Positions 14,721 through 33,535 of a stretch of 64,000 nucleotides of DNA are shown one piece after another (positions within the stretch are counted from its first letter, which is position 1; every line of letters begins with the position of its first letter). The DNA comes from an uncultured Acidobacteriota bacterium. GTDB taxonomy: Bacteria; Acidobacteriota; Thermoanaerobaculia; Multivoradales; UBA5704. Under the pieces are notes generated by a model. That model was not told where the DNA came from. It made no database searches and was given only the letters and a program-made list of their open reading frames with translations. The DNA lies in contig CAVVXL010000010.1 of NCBI GenBank assembly GCA_963752235.1, positions 257,844 through 321,843 on the forward strand, written 5' to 3'. A program made the translations under genes and the position numbers.

Positions 14721-17700
14721 CTACTTCCCCGATCCGCCTCCACCCTGCGTCGTCCCCTGCGCGTCCGCCGGCGGTTTGACGTCGGTGCCGCGGTCGCTCT
14801 TGGGAGGCTCGGGGGCCTTTCCTCCCTTGCCGCGCTCGACCGTGTAGAGGAGGTCGACGCCGGTCGCCTGCCCCTGGCCGCCGACCGCCTCCCCCTGCTG
14901 TGCCTGGACGTTCCACTGGCGGCCGAGCAGGTAGCGGATGGTGAAGGTGTTGATCGGCTGGAAGAGGCCGACCCCGAAGTTCACGTAGAGCCGGGGGGAG
15001 AGGTACTTGCCGACGATCAGCGAGGTCTCCTGGAGGCCGCCGGTCGACTCGAGGCGCGCCTCCTGGAGGCCGAAGCGGGAGGCGATCTTCTTCGCCACCA
15101 GGTTCCCCCCCTTGAGGCCGAGCGAGGTGGCGGCATTGGCCAGCAGGTTTCCTTCCGAGGGCGAGGACTGGCCGAGCGGATGACCGAGCAGCAGGTAGGC
15201 GAGGGCGTTGCTCTCGTCCATCGGCGGGTCGGAGTAGAGGGTCGCCTGCGGCGCGCGCAGGGTGCCGGCGATGTTGATCCCCGCCACCGTGCCGTCGGTC
15301 GCCTTGCGGAATGCCTTGAGGTCGAGGCCGGGGTTGTCGATCGAGCCGCCGGCGAAGATCAGGCGGCCGTGATCGAGGGTGAGATCCTGGCCGTACGCCT
15401 TGTAGACGCCGTTCTTGACCTCCAGCTCGCCGATCGCGGCGGTCGCCTTGTTGGGCTCCTCGATCACCAGCAGGCTGCCGGTGAGATCGCCGCTGAAGCC
15501 GGAGGCCTTGATCGTCACCTTGTCGCCGAGGACGGCGCGGACGCGGGCATAGAGCTGGCGCGACGCCTTGACCGGCTGCTTGGCGACCTGGGACGACGGC
15601 GGCAGGATGATCACGTCCTTCGAGACTCCCACCGTCGCCTTCGCCGGCTTGTCCTGGTCGACCGTCAGCTCGGGGATGTCGATGTCGCCGGTGACGTCCA
15701 CCCGGGTGCCGCTGAGCGCGATGGCCAGCCGCGGCGAGGCGAGCACCTTGAGCTCCTTGGTGTTGGCGACCTGGAAGTTCTTGCCGTCGACCGTGATGCG
15801 GCTTGGGGCTCCGTCGAGCGACACACCGCCGCCGATCGTCACTGAGCCATTTCCCGAGCGGGCGGAGCCCTGGATCTGGAGCGGCCCGGTTCCCGAGCTT
15901 TTCGCGGTGAGCTGGAGCTGGCGCACCTGGAGGTTGTAGGCCGGCACGTCGACCTGCGCCCCCTGGAGCTGGGCCGCGCCGGTGATCGCTGGCTTCGCCA
16001 CCGTGCCGCCGAGGGTGAGGTCGGCGTTGAGCGTGCCGCGGGTGTTCTCGACGTCGGGGACGAAGGCTTCGACCAGGCCGAGGTTGGTGAAATTGGCGAT
16101 CACGTGGCCGGCGATCGTCTGGCTCTGGAGCGGCGCGCCGATCTTGTTGTACTGCGGCAAGCGCAGGTCGGCGCGCACGGAGCCGGTGTTGACGAAGGCG
16201 AGGTCGGCATGGCCGGTGAGACCATCGGCGCCGGCCACCACGCGCACCGTCCCCTGCTCGAAGTGGATGTCGCCGTTGCTCCCGCCCTTGACCGGATAGC
16301 GCAGGTCGCCCGGCCCCGGATGGAGCTCCACGTTGGCGGTCACCATGCCGCTCGGCGAGCCGGTGCCGGTGAAGGTGCCGCCGACGGCGCCGGTGACCTT
16401 GAGGTCAGGCGGCAGCAACGGCGTGAGCAGCGAGAACGGCACCTCGGCGAGGTTGCCGCTGGCGTTCCAGGGGCCGTTCTTCAGCCAATGGCCGTCGGCG
16501 CAGAGCCGGGCGGCGCCGGAGGTCCAGCAGAACCCCTTGAGCGCCGCCTGGGTGCCGCCGGCGGAGAGCTGCGCCGGGCCGGAGAGCTTCCAGGCCCCGA
16601 TCTTCGGGGTGCTGAGGTCGAGGCGGCGGATCTCGCCGCTCCACGCCGTGGTGCCGCGCAGCCCGCCGGCCAGGGCGAGGTCGAGGCTGGCGCCCTGCTG
16701 CGTGGCGGTGTCGATCGCCTGCCGCACGGAGAGCGCGAGCTGGTGGGCGCTGCGCGTCCCCTGGCCGGTGAGGGTGACGGTGTCGAACTTCTGCCCGGAG
16801 AGCCCGACGTTGCCGGCCCGCAGGTCGACCGCCAGCGGCCCATTGGCGCCGAGGTCGACGTCGGCCTTCAGGTTGAGGCTGCCGGCCGAGTAGGTCTGGT
16901 AGGCGAGGGCGCTGCCGGTCGCCTGGGCGGTGATCCGCGGCGCCGCCCAGCGCCCGGCGAGGTGCCCCTGGGCGTCGAGGGCGCCGGCGACGCCCGGCAC
17001 CGCCTCGGCCAGGTTGGGCGCCGCGAGCTGGAAGTAGAGGTTGCCGGCGGTCTTGGTGAAGCTCCCCTTGGCGGTGAGCCGGGCGGAGCCCGAGCGCAGG
17101 TCGAGCTGGGGGAGGCCGTACTGCTCGCCTGCGAGCTCCAGCCGCAGGCTGCCGGCGAGCGGGTTGCCCCGCAGCTGGCCGCTGAGCTGGGTGAGGTCGA
17201 CCTCGCCATAGGGGTTGCCGTTGCGCAGGTCGCCGTGGGTGGCGGCGGCGAAGGTGATCCGCCCCGGGTACTGCGCGAGGCGGGCGTCGGCCGCCGGATC
17301 GAGGCCGTCGCCGTTCAGTTGCAGCTTCCAGGCGACCTGCGGCTTCCAGGCGACGCTGCCGGTGGCGGCGAGCTGGCCGCTCAGCACGTCGCCGTGCAGC
17401 GAGCGGATGTCCATCCGCTCCTGGTTGCCGCGGCCGGCGAGCACCCAGTGGCCGGGCGGGATGCCGGGGCCGCCGAGCTGGGCGTCGAGGGCGAGCAGGT
17501 AGTCGGCGAGGGTGCCGGTCACGTGCGCCTTGCCGGCCGGGCTCACCACCACCGGCTTGCCGCCGGTCAGCGGATAGGCGAGCCGGCTCCAGTCGGCGGC
17601 CAGGTCGAGCTTCCCGCCCTTGGCGGTGTTCGCCTTGCCGCGGGCGTTGAGGACGGCCCCCTGGTCGGTCACCAGGTGGGCGGCGTCGATGGTGAAGTCG

Positions 17701-19025
17701 TCGCCGCGGCGGATCACCCGGTAGTCGACGGTGCCGGCGGCGTAGCCGGTGTAAGCGCCGGCGACCTTCCCCTGCGAGGTGAACTGGTCGAGGCTACCGT
17801 CGATCGCCACGTTCGCCTGCCGGATCTTCGCAGCCGGAAACTTCGCGTCGATCGCCTGCAGGTCGATGCCGCGGGCCTCGGCGGTGACGTCGAGCGCCAG
17901 CGGGCTCTTTGGGGTCGGCAGCGTGACCTTGCCGCGGGCGGCGACGGCGGCCCCCTTGTCGGTCTTCACATTGAGATAGGTGAAGACCAAGTCGTCCCCC
18001 TTGCGCGCCACCCGGTAGTCGGCCTCGCCCGAGCCGTAGCTCTCGTAGGCCCCGAAGATCTTCCCCTCCGAGGTGAAGTCGTCGAGCTGCCCCTTGATCC
18101 TGAGGTCGCCCTGGCGGATGAGGGCGAGCGGCCACTGCGGGTTGATCGCCCTGGCGTTGAATCCCTTGACCTGGGCGGCGAGATCCATGCCGACGACGCG
18201 CATCGGGGTGAGGACGTCCCCCGCGACGTGAGCTGCGAACGGCTGGCTCAGCGTCGCGTCGATCCCCAGCTTCTCGAGGGTGCCGGCGAAATGGCCGCCG
18301 ACCACGAACGGCGGCATCTTGGGATCGCGATAGGTCGCCTGCGCCTGCAGGTTCACCGCGTAGTCGCCGACCGGGTTGAGGTCGCCGGCGGCGCGCAGCT
18401 GGAAGGTGGGGCCGTCGACCGCCAGGGTACGGACGTGGAGGACGTCCCGCGTCCGCTCGCTCTGCGCGTCGAGGGCGATGCGGTCGAGCTTGAAGGGGGG
18501 TGAGCCGACGCGGCGGACCTCGAGGTCGCGGATCAGGGCATCGCGCACCAGGATGTTCACCGGCAGGTGGACGTCCACCAGCTTGCCGTTCGAGGTGGTG
18601 TCACCTTTCTTCAGCAGCGCGACGTGGATCCCCTCGGCGTGGAGCTGCTCGACATCGGCCATCCGCTGCCACAGCTTCCCCGGCCGCCAGGCGAGATAGA
18701 GATGGGCGATCGCCACGTCCATCGCATCGTTGCGATAGTGGACGTCGCGCAGGTCGAGCGGGCCGGTGAGCGGGCCGCGCTGGGCGCCGATCGTCAGCTT
18801 CCCCGGCAGCAGCGTGGCCACGCGGCCGAGCAGGAAACGGGTGCCGCTCTCGCTCGACACCGCGTACAGGGCGATCAGGGCGCCCAGCGTCAACGGGATG
18901 ATCACGATCGCGAAGAGGCGGAGCGCCCACCGCAGCCATCTCCGCCCCCGCCTGGGGGGTGCGGAAGCGGGAACGGGCGTCCGGTCCCGGGTCGCAGGAT
19001 CCGTCGTCGTTTGATCCAGGCTCAT
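14721..19025 (-). CDS. tamB: TamB (translocation and assembly module subunit B, DUF490/AsmA-like)
   Basis: 1434 aa starting at MSLDQTTT with an N-terminal TM anchor (LFAIVIIPLTLGALIALY). C-terminal DUF490 signature LSPRLYVNFGVGLFQPINTFTIRYLLGRQWNVQAQ. Its start ATG overlaps the tamA stop (ATGA 19022..19025). The upstream part of the 2448-aa track ORF is off-frame overlap with tamA and yihY. Confidence 0.85.
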   Translation of the reverse strand: MSLDQTTTDPATRDRTPVPASAPPRRGRRWLRWALRLFAIVIIPLTLGALIALYAVSSESGTRFLLGRVATLLPGKLTIGAQRGPLTGPLDLRDVHYRNDAMDVAIAHLYLAWRPGKLWQRMADVEQLHAEGIHVALLKKGDTTSNGKLVDVHLPVNILVRDALIRDLEVRRVGSPPFKLDRIALDAQSERTRDVLHVRTLAVDGPTFQLRAAGDLNPVGDYAVNLQAQATYRDPKMPPFVVGGHFAGTLEKLGIDATLSQPFAAHVAGDVLTPMRVVGMDLAAQVKGFNARAINPQWPLALIRQGDLRIKGQLDDFTSEGKIFGAYESYGSGEADYRVARKGDDLVFTYLNVKTDKGAAVAARGKVTLPTPKSPLALDVTAEARGIDLQAIDAKFPAAKIRQANVAIDGSLDQFTSQGKVAGAYTGYAAGTVDYRVIRRGDDFTIDAAHLVTDQGAVLNARGKANTAKGGKLDLAADWSRLAYPLTGGKPVVVSPAGKAHVTGTLADYLLALDAQLGGPGIPPGHWVLAGRGNQERMDIRSLHGDVLSGQLAATGSVAWKPQVAWKLQLNGDGLDPAADARLAQYPGRITFAAATHGDLRNGNPYGEVDLTQLSGQLRGNPLAGSLRLELAGEQYGLPQLDLRSGSARLTAKGSFTKTAGNLYFQLAAPNLAEAVPGVAGALDAQGHLAGRWAAPRITAQATGSALAYQTYSAGSLNLKADVDLGANGPLAVDLRAGNVGLSGQKFDTVTLTGQGTRSAHQLALSVRQAIDTATQQGASLDLALAGGLRGTTAWSGEIRRLDLSTPKIGAWKLSGPAQLSAGGTQAALKGFCWTSGAARLCADGHWLKNGPWNASGNLAEVPFSLLTPLLPPDLKVTGAVGGTFTGTGSPSGMVTANVELHPGPGDLRYPVKGGSNGDIHFEQGTVRVVAGADGLTGHADLAFVNTGSVRADLRLPQYNKIGAPLQSQTIAGHVIANFTNLGLVEAFVPDVENTRGTLNADLTLGGTVAKPAITGAAQLQGAQVDVPAYNLQVRQLQLTAKSSGTGPLQIQGSARSGNGSVTIGGGVSLDGAPSRITVDGKNFQVANTKELKVLASPRLAIALSGTRVDVTGDIDIPELTVDQDKPAKATVGVSKDVIILPPSSQVAKQPVKASRQLYARVRAVLGDKVTIKASGFSGDLTGSLLVIEEPNKATAAIGELEVKNGVYKAYGQDLTLDHGRLIFAGGSIDNPGLDLKAFRKATDGTVAGINIAGTLRAPQATLYSDPPMDESNALAYLLLGHPLGQSSPSEGNLLANAATSLGLKGGNLVAKKIASRFGLQEARLESTGGLQETSLIVGKYLSPRLYVNFGVGLFQPINTFTIRYLLGRQWNVQAQQGEAVGGQGQATGVDLLYTVERGKGGKAPEPPKSDRGTDVKPPADAQGTTQGGGGSGK

Positions 19026-20767
19026 AGGTCGGGTCCGATGTTGAGGTGAAACACGATGGGATGACGGGGATCCGAGAAGCCGCAGGCGACGTCGGCGCGG
19101 ACCGGGCCGATCGGCGAGCGCCAGCGGATGCCGATGCCGGCCCCCTGCGCGAGGCCGCCGGTCTTGAAGTCGTGGAAGGCGTTGCCGGTGTCGTAGAAGA
19201 CGGCGGCGCTCCACTTCGGCAGGAAGCGATGCTCGTACTCGAGACTGGCGAGGACGAGCGCCTCGCCGCCGATCACGTTCCCCGCCTCGTCCTTGGTGCC
19301 GAGCGATTCGTACTTGTAGCCGCGGACGCTCTGGTCGCCGCCGGCGAAGAACCGGTAGCGCGGCGGCAGCACGCGGAAGTCGCTGGTCGCGGTATAGCCG
19401 ATCTGGGTGCGGCCGATCAGCCGGTTGCTCTCGCCCACGGTGCGGATCACCTTGCCGTCCGCGAGCCCCTGGAGGAAAGTGGCGTCCGAGAGGGCGCTGC
19501 GGTCGGCACCCTGGAGCGTGAAGCGGAGGCGGTAGCCGTTGGTGGTGTAGATCCGGTCGTCGGCCCGCACGCGCTCCAGGCCGGCGCTCGGCACCAGCAG
19601 GTTCGAGGTCCCTTTGTCGAGCCCCACCTTGTAGTTCTCGCGCTGGTAGTTGAGCGAGTAGGTCTCGTTCCAGCCGTGCTGGAGGAAGGTGTACTGGGTG
19701 CCGACGAGGCCCGTCTTGCTCTCCAGGGTGTTGGTGATCTGGCGGTCGTAGGCGAGGTTGAAGGAGAGGTTGTCGCTGCGCGGGAAAGCCCCGGGGATGA
19801 TGTAGCTCGACTGGAAGCTCTGCTCGATCTGCGAGGCGCTGGCCGAGATCACGGCGCGGTGCCCCTCCTGATTGAGCCGCCGCAGCTCGAAGGCGCCCTT
19901 CACCCGCGGGCCGGTGTCGGTGCCGTAGCCGACGCCGCCGGTGAAGCGCACGGTCTTTGACGGCACCAGGTTGACGTCGATCGGCACCTCGAGGTTCTCG
20001 GCCTGATCCTGCCGGGTCACCACCTCGACGCGGCTCCAATAGGGGCTGTCCGAGAGAGCGCTCTGGAGCTTCAGCACCTTGTTGACGTCGAGCTTGTCGC
20101 CCGGCTTGAAATCGATGTAGCCGGCCAGCAGCCGGCCGTCGAGGACGTCCTGGTGGAAGTAGACCGGACCGAAGAGGTACTGCGGGCCGGTGTTGAAGTG
20201 CAGCACGACGTCGGCCCGGTAGCGCTCGAGGTCGACGCGCACCTGATTCTCCTGGTAGGCGGCGTCGAGGTATCCCTCCTCCGCGGCGAGGTCGGTGAGC
20301 GACTTCTTGCCGCGCTCGTAGTCCGGATGGTGGAGCACCTCGCCGGGGCGCAACGGAAAACCGCTCTGGAGCTGGCGGAAGGCGGGCTCCTCCGCGCCGG
20401 GGCCGGTGATCTGGAGATCGACGGTGGCGATCTTGATCGGCGGGCCGGAGTCGACGTCGAAGCGGGCGGTCCACGTCTTGCCGTCCTGGCGCAGAGTGGG
20501 ACGCACCTGCGGCTTGTAGTAGCCGTAGGGCTGCAACGCGACCCCGATCTCGTCGGGCGCCTGGGCATAGAGCTTCCGGATGCGCTCCTCGCTCAATTTG
20601 CCGTCGTTCTCGCGCTCCAGGCTGAGGGCGGAGAGGATGTTCTGCTTGAGCTCGCGGCGGACGCCGTCGACCTCCACCTTGACCTTGTCGGCATGGAGGG
20701 CGGGAGCGAAAAAGGTGAGACAGACCCCGAGGGTCAGGATGCGGGACAGGCGGAGATCTTCGTTCAT
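19022..20767 (-). CDS. tamA: TamA (Omp85/BamA-family outer membrane protein with POTRA domains)
   Basis: 581 aa. Signal peptide, POTRA-like N-terminal region, C-terminal beta-barrel with alternating aromatic pattern ending ...VFHLNIGPDL. Confidence 0.85.
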   Translation of the reverse strand: MNEDLRLSRILTLGVCLTFFAPALHADKVKVEVDGVRRELKQNILSALSLERENDGKLSEERIRKLYAQAPDEIGVALQPYGYYKPQVRPTLRQDGKTWTARFDVDSGPPIKIATVDLQITGPGAEEPAFRQLQSGFPLRPGEVLHHPDYERGKKSLTDLAAEEGYLDAAYQENQVRVDLERYRADVVLHFNTGPQYLFGPVYFHQDVLDGRLLAGYIDFKPGDKLDVNKVLKLQSALSDSPYWSRVEVVTRQDQAENLEVPIDVNLVPSKTVRFTGGVGYGTDTGPRVKGAFELRRLNQEGHRAVISASASQIEQSFQSSYIIPGAFPRSDNLSFNLAYDRQITNTLESKTGLVGTQYTFLQHGWNETYSLNYQRENYKVGLDKGTSNLLVPSAGLERVRADDRIYTTNGYRLRFTLQGADRSALSDATFLQGLADGKVIRTVGESNRLIGRTQIGYTATSDFRVLPPRYRFFAGGDQSVRGYKYESLGTKDEAGNVIGGEALVLASLEYEHRFLPKWSAAVFYDTGNAFHDFKTGGLAQGAGIGIRWRSPIGPVRADVACGFSDPRHPIVFHLNIGPDL

Positions 20768-20782
20768 TATTTATGAGCAGAA

Positions 20783-27362: not shown

Positions 27363-27488
27363 GCTAGCACAGTTTGCGCGCGACTCTCGCTGCCGCGGTG
27401 CTGTCGCGGCGTCCTTGGGTTACAATCCCCTCCTTCTGCGTCCGTTCGTTCCCTTCCAGGTTACGCAGCCCCGAGGAGCTCAATCGAC

Positions 27489-29174
<1,686 letters not shown>

Positions 29175-29476
29175 TCCCTTTTTTACCGAGCTGAAGCCGT
29201 CGCCGCCGTGGATCCCATGGCGGCGACCCTTCGCTTTCCTAATGGCGGCGTCCTGCCTCCCGGGGAGATCGTTGCGGTTCTCCAGACTGGCATTGAGGTT
29301 GCAATGAATCTATGCGTGCAACGGCGGTGAGGCGCCACGGCTTCGACAAGGCGCGCCAGGAACTCCGGAGAGCCGAAGCTTCTCGCCACATCGCAAAGAG
29401 TACTCATACTGAGAGAGAGCGGAGAGCGTCCTTCGGGCGCCTCTACAAAGGAAACCTTTCTGGAGAGGAGCTTTAT

Positions 29477-30094
29477 ATGAAGCGTCTTACCCTCACGACC
29501 GCCCTGTTGGCCACGCTGGCCGCTCCGGCCCTGTTCGCCCAGAGCAGCCTCAACACGACCGCCCCGGGCCCCTCGCAGGAGAGCAAGCCGGGCCAGACCA
29601 ACAACAACCTGCAGAACCCCGGCTCGAACATGCAGCAGCCGGCGGCCCAGAGCGGCACCTATCAGGAGCACGGCACGGTCGAAGGTACCGCTTCCGAGAG
29701 CACGACGGGCACCAACAGACTGAACAGCCAGACCGGCACCTCCACCGGGACGACCGGAACCACCGGGACCACGGGTACGATGGGCACGACCGGCACGATG
29801 AACAACAACAACACGACCGGGACCACCACCGGGACGATGAACAACGATTCGACCACCGGCTCGACCACCACGGGCACGGGCAGCTACAACGGCACCACGG
29901 GCACGGGTGGCAGCTACAACGGCTCGAGCTCGACCGGCGCCGGCACGTCCACCACGGATACGACCAACACGTCGACGACCTCCTCGAGCCGCCTGCCGCG
30001 CACCGCGAGCGAGCTGCCGACGGTCGCGATCGCCGGCCTGCTGGCCCTGGCGGCCTTCTTCGCCGTCCGCCTCTACTCGAAGCGGAATGCCTAA
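29477..30094 (+). CDS. secreted Thr/Gly/Asn-rich low-complexity protein with C-terminal LPXTA-type sorting signal (putative sortase substrate)
   Basis: Signal peptide MKRLTLTTALLATLAAPALFAQ (GGAGAGGAG upstream). About 100 residues of TGT/TTG tandem repeats. C-terminus LPRTAS-ELPT-VAIAGLLALAAFFAV-RLYSKRNA, that is motif + hydrophobic helix + basic tail. Confidence 0.6.
   Translation: MKRLTLTTALLATLAAPALFAQSSLNTTAPGPSQESKPGQTNNNLQNPGSNMQQPAAQSGTYQEHGTVEGTASESTTGTNRLNSQTGTSTGTTGTTGTTGTMGTTGTMNNNNTTGTTTGTMNNDSTTGSTTTGTGSYNGTTGTGGSYNGSSSTGAGTSTTDTTNTSTTSSSRLPRTASELPTVAIAGLLALAAFFAVRLYSKRNA
29700..30000 (+). repeat. tandem ACC-GGN-ACN (Thr-Gly-Thr) coding repeats inside the sortase-substrate gene
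   Basis: Visible nucleotide periodicity accgggaccaccggaaccaccgggaccacgggtacgatgggcacgaccggcacgatg... Confidence 0.6.
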
Positions 30095-30121
30095 AGGCAC
30101 TCCTCATCCTGTAGGATCGAG

Positions 30122-30158
30122 ATCACCTGGCACTCCGGTGCCAGGTGATTTCTGTTTA
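30122..30158 (+). terminator. intrinsic terminator after the sortase-substrate gene
   Basis: Perfect 12-bp stem ATCACCTGGCAC / GTGCCAGGTGAT with a TCCG loop, immediately followed by TTTCTGTTTAT. Confidence 0.75.
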
Positions 30159-30184
30159 TAGGTCCCTTCTTGCAACGAAAGATC

Positions 30185-30880
30185 ATGAACGGGCTCGACA
30201 CGCTTCCCGTGAAACCGGGCCGCCTGCGCTGGCTGGAGCGCGGCCTGCTGCTCGTCGCCGCGCTCTGCCTGGGTTTCTGGGTATACGTCTGGCTCGACGC
30301 CGCCTACGTCCAGCACCGCGACAACGAGATCCTGGATGCCGCGCCGGACTCGGCGCCGGCGGCCCTGCCGGCTCCCATTCCCGCCGCGCAGACCGACTCC
30401 CTCGGCAGCTTCCAGGCAGCGCCGCCGCCCGAGCCGCTCCCGGCCGCCGAGGAGGGCTCGCTGGTCGGCCGCGTCGAGATCCCCCGCCTGGGAGTGTCGG
30501 CGATCATCCTCGAGGGGGTGGAGAGCTCGACGCTACGGCGCGGCGTCGGTCACATTCCCGAGACTCCGCTCCCCGGCAGCTCCGGCAACGTCGGGCTCGC
30601 CGCCCACCGGGACAGCTTTTTCCGTGCGCTGAGAGATATTCGTAAGAATGACACGGTGAAGATCAAGACGCTGGCCGGCACGTACCGCTATCAGGTCGAA
30701 TGGACCAAGGTTGTCGAGCCGGAGCAGACCGAGGTGCTCGCCGCCGACATCACCGCGGGCCCCGAGCTCACCCTGGTCACCTGCTATCCATTCAACTATG
30801 TCGGCTCGGCCCCGCACCGCTTCATCGTCCGCGCCCGGCAGGTCGCCGATTCTCCGGCAAGCGACGCGACGATCAACTAG
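30185..30880 (+). CDS. sortase (cysteine transpeptidase; membrane-anchored, Gram-negative single-substrate type)
   Basis: Start at ATG 30185 (the track used TTG 30170). N-terminal TM anchor, catalytic His region GNVGLAAHRD, and the TLxTC active-site motif LTLVTCYPF. Confidence 0.75.
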   Translation: MNGLDTLPVKPGRLRWLERGLLLVAALCLGFWVYVWLDAAYVQHRDNEILDAAPDSAPAALPAPIPAAQTDSLGSFQAAPPPEPLPAAEEGSLVGRVEIPRLGVSAIILEGVESSTLRRGVGHIPETPLPGSSGNVGLAAHRDSFFRALRDIRKNDTVKIKTLAGTYRYQVEWTKVVEPEQTEVLAADITAGPELTLVTCYPFNYVGSAPHRFIVRARQVADSPASDATIN

Positions 30881-33327
30881 CGCACGACGAGCGGCAGGCG
30901 CACCTCGATCTCACTTCCCCGCCCCGGACCCTCGCTGCGCGCCTCGACCCGCCCGCCGTGCATCTCCACCAGACTGCGGACCAGGGTCAGCCCGATCCCG
31001 AGGCCCGCGCCCGCGCGGTCGAGACCCTGCTCCCCCTGAGCGAAGAGGTCGAAGATCCGCGGCAGCAGGTCGGCCGAGATGCCGATCCCGTCGTCGCGCA
31101 CCCGCACCACCGCCTCCCCGGCGCCACCCTTGCCGTCGCGATGCGCGGAGACCTCCACCCGTCCCCCCTCCTCGGTGAACTTGAGGGCATTGCGCAGCAG
31201 GTTCGAGAACACCTGCTCGAGGCGCGTGGCGTCGCCTTCGACCGGCAGCGGCGGACCAGCGAGATCCATCCGCAGGCTCTGGCTCTTGGTTGCAGCCAGA
31301 GGGCGTGCCGCCTCTACCGCATGTTGCAGCACCTCTCCCAGGTCGAGCGGCTCGCGTCGCAGCTCCACCTTGCCGCGGGTGATCCGCGAAACGTCGAGCA
31401 GGTCGTCGACCATCCGTACCAAGTGCTGGATCTGACGGCGGATGATGACGACCGGCTTGCCCATCCGTTCGTCCAGATCGCCGGCGCCCAGCTGCTCCAA
31501 CAGGTAGGAGGCGTTGGCGATGGCGCCGAGCGGATTGCGCAGCTCGTGAGCCAGCATGGCCAGGAACTCGTCCTTGCGGCGGTCGGTCTCGGCGAGCGCT
31601 TCGGCGCGGGCGCGCAACTCGGCGGCCAGCCGCGCGCTCTCATGGGTGCGCGCGGCCAGCCGGTCGCGCATCTCCGCGAAAGCGGCGGATAGATGGGCGA
31701 CTTCGGTAATGCTGCTGGCGGCGCCGAGCGGGGCCGCGAGGTTCCCTGCCGTCAGCTCGCCGACCGCCACGGCCAGGTCCCCCAGTGGGCGGGCGATGCG
31801 GCGCGATGCGTAAAGGCCGGCGACCACCGTCAACGGGATCACCACCAGGAGCAGCCCGAAGGCGAGGTCGCGCCCCCTCCGCACGCCGGCCAGGGCGTCG
31901 GCCCGTGGGCGCTCGACCGCCACCGCCCAGCCGAGCTGTGGAATGCGGGCGAACCCCGCCACCTCGGGCGCGCGGCCGGGGCCTCGGTGGTGGTCCGGCC
32001 GATCCCAACCGGCAGGGAGAGGGGGAAGCGGCGGCTCCGAGACCACGCCGTCGACTCGCGCGATGGTTCGTCCCCGGCCATCCGCCACGGTGACTCGCGA
32101 ACCCTGGCGGGAGATCCGCCCCTCCAGTCCGCCGGCGGCGAAAGCGGCCACCAGGGTCCCCTCCAGGCGAGCGTCGCCATGGATCGGCGCGCCGAGCAGA
32201 AAAAGGGCGCGCCCGCCGAGCTGAATCGGCGTGATCTGCATCCGCCGGGGTGAGTGGCCGACGTCCGCGGCGATGCCGAGCACTTCCGGCAGCGGCAGCG
32301 GCTCGCCTCCCGCGGCCGCCACCACCCGGCCGCCGGTGACCGTTCGCAGCGCGACCAGATCGGGATATTCGGTCCGCGCTTCCCGCAGCAGCTCGCCCTG
32401 ATCTTCCGCCGTCATCGCCGACCGCCCCGCGAAAGCGGCCAGGGTGGCGGCGCGGGCGCCGTTCATCTCGATGAAGTCCGACACGTTCTGGGCGATGGAC
32501 TTCGCCTGCGCGGCTTGCGCGGCCTGAGCCTCTTCCTCGGTGAGCTTCTCCTCCTGTGCCGTCACCACCGCCGTCGCCAGGATCAAGGCCAGCGAGGTGG
32601 CGATCACCAGCACCAGCGAGACGCGGGCCTGGAGCATGGCGGTATCGAGCGCGTCCAGACGGGGGCGGAGCCAGGGTAGCGCGGCGAGCGCGGCGCCGCC
32701 GCCCCAGTAGAGCGCCACTCCCGTCCAGCTTCGCGCAGGGAGCGCGAAGAGCGCGCCGAAGGTGAGGAAGGTGAAACCGGCGGCCAGGTGAAAGATCCAG
32801 ACCCAGGTACGCCGCAGACCGGGACGCAATTGCGCGTAGACGAGGAAAGGGCCGGTCACCAGCATCACCAACCCGATCAAAATCAGCTGATCTCGGTAAG
32901 GGCCGTAGAACGCGCTGCGGAAGAGCTGCGGCCGCACCGCGACGATCAGACCCGAGAGGGTGGCGACGAGCCCCATCAGCAGGCCGAACAGGTCTCCGCC
33001 GGCGGCGGCCTGCCGCCGCTGCGGCAGCAGGCCGGCGAGCACGACCCCCAGGCCGAGGACGGCGTAGACCACCGTGCCCGACGCCGCTCGCACCGCGGCA
33101 AAGCTGAGGGCCAGGGCAAGAAGCGTCAGCCCGGCCAGCAGGTCGGCGAGCCGGGCCGCCCAGGGCGAGGGGCGCAGCACGGCGACGGCGACCAGCCCCA
33201 CGCCGGAGGCGAGAGCGAAAGCCCCCCAGGCGAGAGCGTAGGGGAGCAGCGCCTGGTAGGGAGCGGTCTGGAAGTGGTGGGGGGCGATGAGCAGGAACGC
33301 GCCGATGAAGGAGCAGAACAGCCCCAT
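30877..33327 (-). CDS. sensor histidine kinase with N-terminal multi-TM sensor region (about 7 TM), HAMP, HisKA and HATPase_c domains
   Basis: HisKA H-box [14 protein letters not shown]-box [10 protein letters not shown]-boxes DDGIGI and GAGLGIGL. Start uncertain: M at 33327 chosen, the ORF is open to 33450. No response regulator adjacent. Confidence 0.8.
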
Positions 33328-33535
33328 CACCCAGCGCAGGCTGTCGGCGGAAAGATCGCACAGCCGGCCGTGGAGAACCGCCGGCCGACGGCGGTCACCG
33401 TTTACCGATCCCTGTTGCAAACCTTCTTGCAAAGCCTTCGTACCTCCCACGCGCCCGAGCTCACGGAGCGCTAGAATGCCGCTCGTTGTTCAACCCCTGG
33501 AGGGCCGGCGGACTTCCCACCGGCCGGAGGAATCC

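Follow-up and report, generated by a model that had tools for sequence, protein, structure and literature searches.

A 64-kb stretch of contig CAVVXL010000010.1 (the window, by which we mean the whole of the DNA analyzed) carries on its forward strand a compact cassette of two genes, in which a small exported protein ending in a cell-wall sorting tail (hereafter the substrate) directly precedes a membrane-anchored sortase. Sortase genes have been known in outer-membrane bacteria since 2004, when a single sortase accompanied by a single candidate substrate was described for some Gram-negative genomes (Comfort and Clubb, 2004, as cited in PMC8225981), and the role of sortases in such bacteria was still called unknown in a 2023 study (bioRxiv 10.1101/2023.05.05.539549). 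An earlier note on this DNA had described a signal-peptide-bearing protein, rich in threonine, glycine and asparagine, whose C-terminus combines LPRTAS with a hydrophobic helix and a basic tail, and, directly after it, a membrane-anchored sortase bearing the motif TLVTCYPF. Both genes are present as described, and they are accompanied by putative regulatory elements that are conserved in related genomes. The features of the cassette are given below, where family A denotes the Thermoanaerobaculia type of the system, delimited further on.

29288..29303, + strand: sigma-54 (RpoN) -24/-12 promoter consensus, TGGCATTGAGGTTGCA, 173 nucleotides (nt) upstream of the substrate ATG
29304..29476, + strand: 5' leader with two conserved stem-loops and a Shine-Dalgarno (SD) sequence, from alignment and folding of related leaders
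29462..29471, + strand: SD sequence, GGAGAGGAGC, invariant in family-A leaders
29477..30094, + strand: substrate gene, ATG at 29477, stop at 30092..30094, 205 amino acids (aa)
29477..29539, + strand: substrate signal peptide, MKRLTLTTALLATLAAPALFA, predicted cut before QS
29540..29623, + strand: conserved N-terminal peptide of the substrate, ~28 residues, kept in orthologues
29624..29992, + strand: spacer rich in threonine, glycine, serine and asparagine (T/G/S/N), assigned by composition; the variable middle in orthologues
29993..30010, + strand: LPRTAS of the substrate, predicted cleavage after T (codon 30002..30004)
30011..30091, + strand: transmembrane (TM) helix and basic tail of the substrate, from sequence; kept in orthologues
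30119..30152, + strand: intergenic hairpin of 12 perfect base pairs, 15 with flanking pairs, starting 24 bases after the substrate stop
30124..30147, + strand: hairpin core CACCTGGCAC-TCCG-GTGCCAGGTG; the hairpin as a whole is followed by a U-rich tract to ~30162
30185..30880, + strand: class-D-like sortase, 231 aa from ATG 30185, Pfam PF04203
30605..30607 (His), 30782..30784 (Cys) and 30818..30820 (Arg), + strand: catalytic residues of the sortase, invariant in homologues

The sortase matches the Pfam Sortase family (PF04203) at 6.8e-30, with 103.8 bits against a cut-off of 26.6, and likewise surpasses TIGR01076 (85.4 bits, cut-off 39.35); more than 5,000 database proteins match it in turn. 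Its start in the list of open reading frames (ORFs) is a TTG at 30170, and homologues (P0006, P0002) begin at the equivalent of ATG 30185 (MNGL...), which is most likely the true start. A single TM helix lies near the N-terminus, spanning residues 16-57 in an AlphaFold2 (AF2) model, and H146, C205 (within TLVTCYPF) and R217 are invariant across 21 aligned homologues. When the NCBIfam models are ranked by score, two class D models lead (NF058671, 131 bits; NF033746, 124.6 bits), followed by class GN (95.1 bits on TIGR03784, below its cut-off of 158.25), E (92), C (78) and F (19); class D is accordingly the best of classes A to F and GN, while the cut-offs of neither D nor GN are reached. The best sequence matches in the PDB are both class D enzymes (2LN7, 3.2e-19; 4D70, 5.5e-15). 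We therefore refer to the enzyme as class-D-like, in the sense that, to judge by its sequence, it would act as class D does, and that it fails the curated threshold. The AF2 model has a mean predicted local distance difference test (pLDDT) score of 67.5, with the barrel better modelled, and the barrel matches solved sortases with a Foldseek probability of 1.0. Assignment of class by fold proved uninformative, as Foldseek matches classes A, C, D and E about equally. Between the TM helix and the barrel runs a linker (30305..30455, residues ~46-95) in which the pattern Q.RDN.ILD...A.ETD.LG.F is conserved across homologues; residues 61-97, which include the conserved TDxLGxF, have a pLDDT below 50 in the model. 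A role comparable to that of the lid in class C sortases is conceivable for this linker.

The substrate ends in SSSRLPRTASELPTVAIAGLLALAAFFAVRLYSKRNA, in which SSSRLPRTAS is followed by the helix ELPTVAIAGLLALAAFFAV and then by RLYSKRNA. A 19-residue window over residues 179-197 of this helix has a mean Kyte-Doolittle value of ~2.0, and the protein as a whole has the tripartite anchor layout of signal peptide, motif and hydrophobic helix with basic residues at the extreme C-terminus. It has no lipobox. The predicted mature chain, from Q22 to the Thr of LPRT, is 155 residues long and consists to 72% of T/G/S/N (T 30%, G 17%, S 14%, N 11%), with hydrophobic residues accounting for 6%. The overlapping 305-aa ORF on the opposite strand (29183..30100, -) could mislead gene callers, and it is ruled out as a real gene by its G+C content at third codon positions, which is 0.50 as against 0.93 for the substrate ORF on the + strand; the same comparison establishes the latter as the real gene. 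Within the window this is the only ORF with such a sorting tail.

The substrate had previously been called essentially domain-less, and it does match no Pfam or NCBIfam domain; PF00746 gives no match, and the LPXTG anchor model TIGR01167 gives 10.7 bits, below its cut-off of 15.9. It is not featureless, however, for a peptide of ~28 residues is conserved directly after the signal peptide. In the window this peptide reads QSSLNTTAPGPSQESKPGQTNNNLQNPG, the consensus of family-A substrates is S[ST]LNTxAPGPSQETKPGQTNNNLQNPG, and closer relatives also carry QEHGTVEGTAxES. At the other end, family A conserves LPxTAS[DE]LPTVA...KRNA. The spacer between them varies in both length and composition, being T/G/S/N-rich in some loci and made of acidic DVDVDTG repeats elsewhere. 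The combination of two conserved ends with a freely evolving linker between them suggests a chain that is fixed at one end and meets a binding partner at the other. No lysine is conserved among family-A substrates: L007, L008 and L010 have R, E or another residue in place of the K of SQETKPG. Heavy O-glycosylation, which the earlier note had thought plausible, is speculative, and none of the nearby genes supports it. Protein databases contain few members of the substrate family, and these are often truncated (P0121-P0129): a word-index homologue search with the N-terminal 80 aa returned eight matches, mostly truncated, and one with the C-terminal 45 aa returned a single match. P0127, a member of full length, bears the source label 'cobalamin biosynthesis Mg chelatase CobN', apparently in error.

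What binds the two genes together is their association in other genomes. A scan of one genome per species yielded at least 585 stretches with relatives of the sortase, the best 80 of which were used as loci; these come from Thermoanaerobaculia, Terriglobia, Bryobacterales, Vicinamibacterales, Blastocatellia, Holophagales and Eisenbacteria, together with one metagenome-assembled genome labelled Gemmatimonadales. In 70 of the 80, the upstream same-strand ORF ends in the strict pattern of LPxT[AGS], a hydrophobic stretch and basic residues, and five more have variant tails (MPxTAS, MPxTAG, LPKSAS). Three of the remaining loci end at a contig edge upstream, so that 77 loci are informative, and an upstream same-strand gene with a sorting tail (variants included) is found in 75 of them. 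The tail of LPxTAS, helix and basic residues is thus kept both in orthologues of the window substrate and in sortase neighbours across the classes of Acidobacteriota. Neither of the two conditions that the earlier note had named as fatal to its reading, a sortase lacking the catalytic Cys, His or Arg and a tail that orthologues do not conserve, is borne out. Because these proteins are of unrelated families in their N-terminal parts and have only the tail in common, inherited gene order alone is insufficient to account for the arrangement. We conclude that tail and sortase travel together and that their pairing is not due to chance.

The signal itself extends well beyond the pentapeptide. Aligned over 187 distinct tails it reads L-P-x-T-A-S-x-[LM]-P-x-x-x-L-x-G-L-L-x-L, with Ala5 in 172, Ser6 in 177, Pro9 in 182 and Gly15 in 185, figures that must be read with the selection of the tails by motif or profile in mind, which partly fixes the first positions by design. 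A profile hidden Markov model of the tail, scanned against 1.84 billion representative proteins (E <= 0.001), matched 126 proteins of 35-342 residues, each of them at the C-terminus or no more than ~50 residues away from it. As all of these proteins are small and all matches lie near the C-terminus, the bearers of the signal form a restricted group of small proteins, as opposed to large adhesins or enzymes. The 60 sequences that were read among the 126 fall into four families (A, B, a third and a fourth) and a few singletons. Individual loci encode one or two substrates, the window one. The term 'dedicated' is supported in the sense of linked and narrow; that it also holds in the exclusive sense of one substrate per genome is conjecture.

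Family A comprises L001-L012, L026, L201-L203 and the window, and its substrate directly precedes the sortase. In family B, which occurs in Terriglobia, Bryobacterales and Blastocatellia, the N-terminal part of the substrate is a folded domain of ~130 residues (ADDWNRKTVxTFSGPVEVPG...), and the gene order is substrate with LPxTAS tail, VWA gene (TIGR03436 'acidobact_VWFA', 2.4e-64) and sortase. This three-gene form is seen at L029:4144-6654 and at ~40 other loci (e.g., L025, L015, L018). No VWA gene of the TIGR03436 type was found in the window by tblastn. The Chloracidobacterium sortase of the former locus (L029:5968-6654) passes NF058671 with 144.7 bits (cut-off 140) and does not pass NF033746 (127 bits), and the substrate beside it just passes the anchor models (TIGR01167, 16.1 bits; PF00746, 20.3 versus 20). 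That substrate ends in LPQTAS and not in LPxTATN, and the model name of NF058671, 'class D sortase, LPxTATN-specific', would be misleading for this clade. A third family of small proteins with the same tail has an 'SGTVVSS..LVI.T..G....F' module, sometimes duplicated (P0141, P0144, P0166, P0180, P0198, P0208, P0221, P0231; L030, L069), and a fourth has a 'CLQ...MGPATTV' module (P0196, P0214, P0219). Two tandem substrate genes precede the sortase in L004, L014, L023, L031 and L077. In L004 both tandem genes come with a sigma-54 motif and a hairpin copy of their own, and in L014 and L031 the promoter motif stands before the first of the two genes only.

The promoter motif, which the earlier note had not mentioned, agrees with the consensus TGGCAC-N5-TTGCW (GG at -24, GC at -12) and is the sole match in the window to TGGCAY-N5-TTGCW, where 0.02 would be expected from shuffles. 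In every family-A locus a sigma-54 motif precedes the first substrate gene by 75-195 nt, and 17 of the 20 matches to the strict pattern TGGCAY-N5-TYGCW in 1.9 Mb (window plus loci, both strands) fall at the family-A position. The substrates of family B are without the motif. From its consensus and its conservation, we predict a sigma-54 promoter that would drive the substrate gene in an RpoN-dependent manner. The leader that follows measures 155-181 nt in related loci and contains conserved blocks. In an alignment of 13 leaders, eight of 16 predicted pairs keep their pairing through changes on both sides, and leaders folded singly arrive at the same long hairpin (GGCGGTG...GGCTTCGG/CCGAAGCC...) with a second hairpin before the SD sequence. 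The long stem occurs in covarying versions, namely GGCTTCGG/CCGAAGCC, GGGACCTCGG/TCGAGGTCCC and GGGCTCCGG/CCGAGCCCC, and the stem-loops are backed by compensatory changes across 13-15 loci. Neither leader nor intergenic hairpin has a counterpart in Rfam (no match at E <= 1 in 29100..31000), and the leader may be a new cis-acting RNA element of a stabilizing or regulatory kind.

A second RNA structure occupies the 86-nt gap between the two genes, which folds with a minimum free energy of -39.1 kcal/mol (z = -6.5), a value reached by none of 200 shuffles. Its 10-bp core, CACCTGGCGC/GCGCCAGGTG, was compared in 17 sequences from 16 places, these being the window and 15 loci retrieved by protein similarity (among L001-L012, L014, L023, L026 and L031), whose sortases are 48-65% identical to that of the window. 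The core is identical throughout save for a G-U pair, an unpaired cell (G opposite A in the L004b copy) and two compensatory double changes, from G-C to A-U in the window and from U-A to C-G in L026. Immediately beyond the core, the next outer pair covaries (UA 12, AU 2, GC 2). The covariation score of the hairpin is 0.153, against 0.099 for shuffles (none of 500 reaches the observed score) and at most 0.096 for slid controls, and the intergenic DNA that flanks it is not conserved. The hairpin has a single copy in the window and in each related locus, invariably between substrate and sortase, which rules it out as a genome-wide repeat or a generic terminator. An operator of double-stranded DNA bound by a dimer is disfavoured by the distance between the arms, which varies from 3 to 11 nt. 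When the bare 20-nt core was sought in metagenomes, ~42 of 120 matches lay at the sortase locus and 78 in unrelated contexts. Beyond the conserved core, a strong hairpin is the rule after substrate genes in nearly all classes (median -26.8 kcal/mol; -25 or lower in 42 of 68), as compared with five of 80 random windows and three of 77 windows after the sortase stop that fold to -25 kcal/mol or lower. No sigma-70-like promoter was found in 29100..31100, and only ~33 nt separate the hairpin from the sortase ATG; on these two grounds the sortase appears to be transcribed by read-through. The hairpin is probably a partial terminator or a stabilizer of the mRNA 3' end. That it sets the ratio of substrate to sortase, as the earlier note had supposed, is plausible and is strengthened by its conservation, by the short distance to the sortase ATG and by the absence of a sigma-70-like promoter from the stretch searched.

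The genes surrounding the cassette place it in an outer-membrane bacterium, and the features around it include the following.

14721..19019, - strand: TamB, Pfam PF04357, 1.3e-58
19022..20770, - strand: TamA, Pfam Omp85 and POTRA_TamA_1
27486..29174, upstream of the substrate gene: EttA, TIGR03719, 962 bits
29199..29227, + strand: 13-bp G+C-rich hairpin followed by CCTTCGCTTT, directly 3' of the EttA stop
30877..33450, - strand: convergent multi-TM sensor histidine kinase, Pfam HAMP, HisKA and HATPase_c

Pfam confirms the TamA and TamB that the earlier note had read in the window, and the organism therefore has an outer membrane. The G+C content of the window is 69.9%, the closest named homologues of the sortase are entries titled 'class D sortase [Thermoanaerobaculia bacterium]', from a class of the Acidobacteriota, and the best explanation is that the cassette belongs to a soil-type, Thermoanaerobaculia-like diderm of that phylum. 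Within the class the gene order of EttA, substrate, sortase, kinase and M28 peptidase is kept. The hairpin at 29199..29227, which lies 61-89 nt upstream of the sigma-54 motif and whose sequence is not kept in related loci, is probably the terminator of EttA. The kinase, correctly placed by the earlier note as convergent and just downstream, shares 4 nt with the sortase at their stop codons and occupies the same place, after the sortase, in 13 genome loci of family A as well as in L201-L203. It is built of ~9 N-terminal hydrophobic segments, a loop of ~230 aa, a tenth TM segment, HAMP, HisKA and HATPase_c. No Pfam family matches its N-terminal sensor region, and among NCBIfam models it obtains generic kinase-core matches, all below cut-offs, with no specific family. 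No response regulator was seen among the scanned neighbours of this orphan kinase and the sortase. The kinase is a conserved neighbour of the sortase, and it may have some part in the cassette.

We consider it on balance probable that these genes form a two-gene envelope cassette, in which a sortase kept scarce by the hairpin anchors a T/G-rich protein to a peptidoglycan acceptor. The sigma-54 promoter and the structured leader would drive transcription of the small exported protein, which would leave the cytoplasm through Sec and stay anchored in the inner membrane through the helix and basic tail at its C-terminus, with LPRTAS at the periplasmic face. The sortase, as a type II membrane protein with its catalytic domain in the periplasm, would then cleave the Thr-Ala bond of LPRTAS by way of a thioester on Cys205 and would pass the new C-terminal Thr to an amine acceptor, most likely the meso-diaminopimelate side chain of lipid II or peptidoglycan. 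The predicted product is a disordered, T/G/S/N-rich chain of ~155 residues that is attached to the sacculus by its C-terminus and leaves its N-terminal peptide free for a partner. The hairpin, for its part, would end or stabilize most transcripts after the substrate gene, leaving the sortase to be made by read-through only and at a much lower level.

A number of observations weigh against this account. The sortase scores below every class-specific NCBIfam cut-off (NF058671, 131 versus 140; NF033746, 124.6 versus 165), and the peptidoglycan acceptor would be an analogy carried over from Firmicutes. The literature searched held no experiment on any member of the clade. An activator of sigma-54 is missing both from the window, whose six-frame translation has no GAFTGA, ESELFG or Walker-type match, and from the family-A loci, the only matches being in four unrelated family-B loci. 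Finally, the T-run after the hairpin is interrupted in the window, where TGTTTAT follows directly 3' of the stem (TTTCTGTTTAT), and L014 and L031 keep the core without a U-tract. In view of this interruption and of these two loci the hairpin may not be a simple terminator, and of the intrinsic terminator that the earlier note had described, the 12-bp stem stands as stated and the T-run is present in broken form.

Of several rival explanations, the most serious concerns the hairpin. It may mainly be a sequence-specific recognition element, bound by an RNA-binding protein or cut by an RNase so as to govern sortase translation or mRNA fate, rather than a plain terminator. We regard this as possible though doubtful. 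The invariance of the 10-bp core among such divergent sortases and such unconserved flanks would be well explained by it, as would the two loci that dispense with the U-tract, and a loop that varies from 3 to 11 nt favours a hairpin over a double-stranded DNA operator. Set against this are the ATTTYGTTT that directly follows the stem in most related copies, a classic terminator layout, the strong unrelated hairpins after substrate genes in other classes, which fit generic termination or stabilization, and the 78 of 120 metagenomic copies of the 20-nt core that lie in unrelated contexts. The identity of the acceptor invites a different objection, namely that the substrate is joined to an outer-membrane or periplasmic protein, a glycan, a lipid amine or itself. 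The role of Gram-negative sortases has been stated to be unknown (bioRxiv 10.1101/2023.05.05.539549), a VWA gene (TIGR03436) stands between substrate and sortase in the Terriglobia and Bryobacterales cassettes, just as VWA proteins accompany the proteobacterial sortase system, and the fold of the sortase model agrees with pilus class C no less than with class D. We nonetheless hold such an acceptor to be unlikely, given that class D enzymes using diaminopimelate (DAP) are its closest matches by sequence, that the window has no VWA gene, and that the failure of family A to keep any lysine disfavours polymerization of the pilin type.

Two alternatives remain. Sortases hydrolyse their own signal slowly when no nucleophile is offered, and the acceptor proposed here is a prediction; the enzyme could conceivably act as a maturation protease that hydrolyses LPRT|AS and frees a soluble T/G-rich protein into the periplasm or the medium. 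To conserve a Cys transpeptidase and its signal across a phylum would be an expensive way of doing what enzymes of the signal-peptidase type do, and all characterized sortases are transpeptidases in vivo (PMC8225981), such that we judge this quite improbable. Least credible, to the point of being almost negligible, is an adjacency due to chance or inheritance in which the LPRTAS tail is no sortase signal. Synteny could explain the close relatives, in which the order from EttA to the M28 peptidase is kept, but the pairing persists in other classes with different flanks and with substrates whose unrelated N-termini share the tail alone. Anchoring to peptidoglycan by a scarce sortase remains the account that we prefer.

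It is tempting to extend this preferred account to a function, albeit one that we put forward as a long shot. Under the control of sigma-54 and an envelope sensor, the cassette might build a tether or spacer between peptidoglycan and outer membrane from an abundant, intrinsically disordered protein, with its C-terminus grafted onto peptidoglycan by the sortase and the N-terminal peptide docking to an outer-membrane partner, and so do the job of Braun's lipoprotein by other chemistry. Its output would be set by the leader and the hairpin, two previously undescribed conserved RNA elements, and the kinase might sense unprocessed precursor as PilS senses pilin.

Part of what is described here is already known, in that relatives of the sortase are named 'class D sortase' by NCBI and that neighbouring genes for a sortase and a candidate substrate have been recognized in some Gram-negative bacteria. 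The literature searched contained no study of an Acidobacteriota sortase system, with sortases of Solibacter appearing in gene-count tables only. New are the phylum-wide conservation of the pairing, the extended LPxTASxLP signal, the architecture of family-A substrates, the sigma-54 promoter and the two conserved RNA structures. While none of this is a surprise in principle, the Thermoanaerobaculia form is near minimal, with one promoter, one small substrate, one hairpin and one enzyme, and it offers a clean, testable handle on the twenty-year-old question of what sortases do in bacteria with two membranes. If the product is indeed bound to peptidoglycan, it would represent a new class of covalently wall-attached envelope proteins of diderms in one of the most abundant soil phyla. 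There is also a lesson for annotation, as the substrate is elusive for gene callers and word-index searches, scores below the cut-off of the LPXTG model and has on one occasion been labelled CobN.

Among characterized systems, the class D sortases, namely Bacillus anthracis SrtC with BasH and BasI (LPNTA), B. subtilis YhcS with YhcR and YfkN, and Clostridium perfringens SrtD, are the best NCBIfam and PDB sequence matches of the window enzyme. They share with it the His/Cys/Arg triad, the TLxTC motif and an Ala after the Thr of the signal (LPxTA[ST]), and they too serve few substrates per enzyme, whose genes often lie close by. LPXTA is the motif published for class D, and B. anthracis SrtC attaches LPNTA proteins to the DAP cross-bridge, an acceptor that corresponds to the peptidoglycan chemistry expected in a Gram-negative wall (PMC8225981). 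The window system differs in that its sortase falls short of both curated class D cut-offs, in that its host is a diderm of the Acidobacteriota and not a spore-forming monoderm, and in its extended signal (LPxTASxLP...G), its disordered T/G-rich substrate and the sigma-54 promoter of the substrate gene.

The dedicated system of proteobacteria (class GN, TIGR03784) is similar in having a single sortase, a neighbouring predicted target, an outer membrane and a sensor kinase alongside. Its representative in Shewanella oneidensis, the marine sortase system SO2194-SO2196, adjoins PghK/PghR and is induced by peptidoglycan damage (bioRxiv 10.1101/2023.05.05.539549). In contrast, the window sortase reaches only 95.1 bits on the class GN model, its target is without the VWA/inter-alpha-trypsin-inhibitor domain of TIGR03788, neither an OmpA-family PdsO gene nor a response regulator was found among the neighbours scanned, and the kinase matches by its generic core only. 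The PEP-CTERM/exosortase (EpsH) systems likewise concern small exported proteins of environmental Gram-negatives that end in a motif, a helix and a basic tail and that are associated with a sigma-54 motif and a kinase. PEP-CTERM genes have long intergenic regions with a sigma-54 motif, lie mostly in single-gene operons and are associated with the transmembrane histidine kinase of PrsK/PrsR (PMC1569441), and an RpoN-dependent PEP-CTERM gene has been reported (PMC9850573). The enzymes are unrelated, however, a polytopic exosortase standing against the sortase fold and PEP against LPxTAS, so that the likeness is one of design and not of membership.

Two further comparisons concern the product and its control. 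Braun's lipoprotein (Lpp) is joined to peptidoglycan through its C-terminal Lys, a reaction catalysed by L,D-transpeptidases, and at its N-terminus it bears a lipid that sits in the outer membrane. Provided that the acceptor is meso-diaminopimelate, the window substrate would resemble it as a small and probably abundant protein bound covalently to the sacculus, although the substrate has no lipobox, would be linked through Thr by a sortase, and would touch the outer membrane only by hypothesis. Sigma-54 and PilS-PilR, in turn, control pilin genes that are followed by terminators, an arrangement that the design of the cassette resembles as well.

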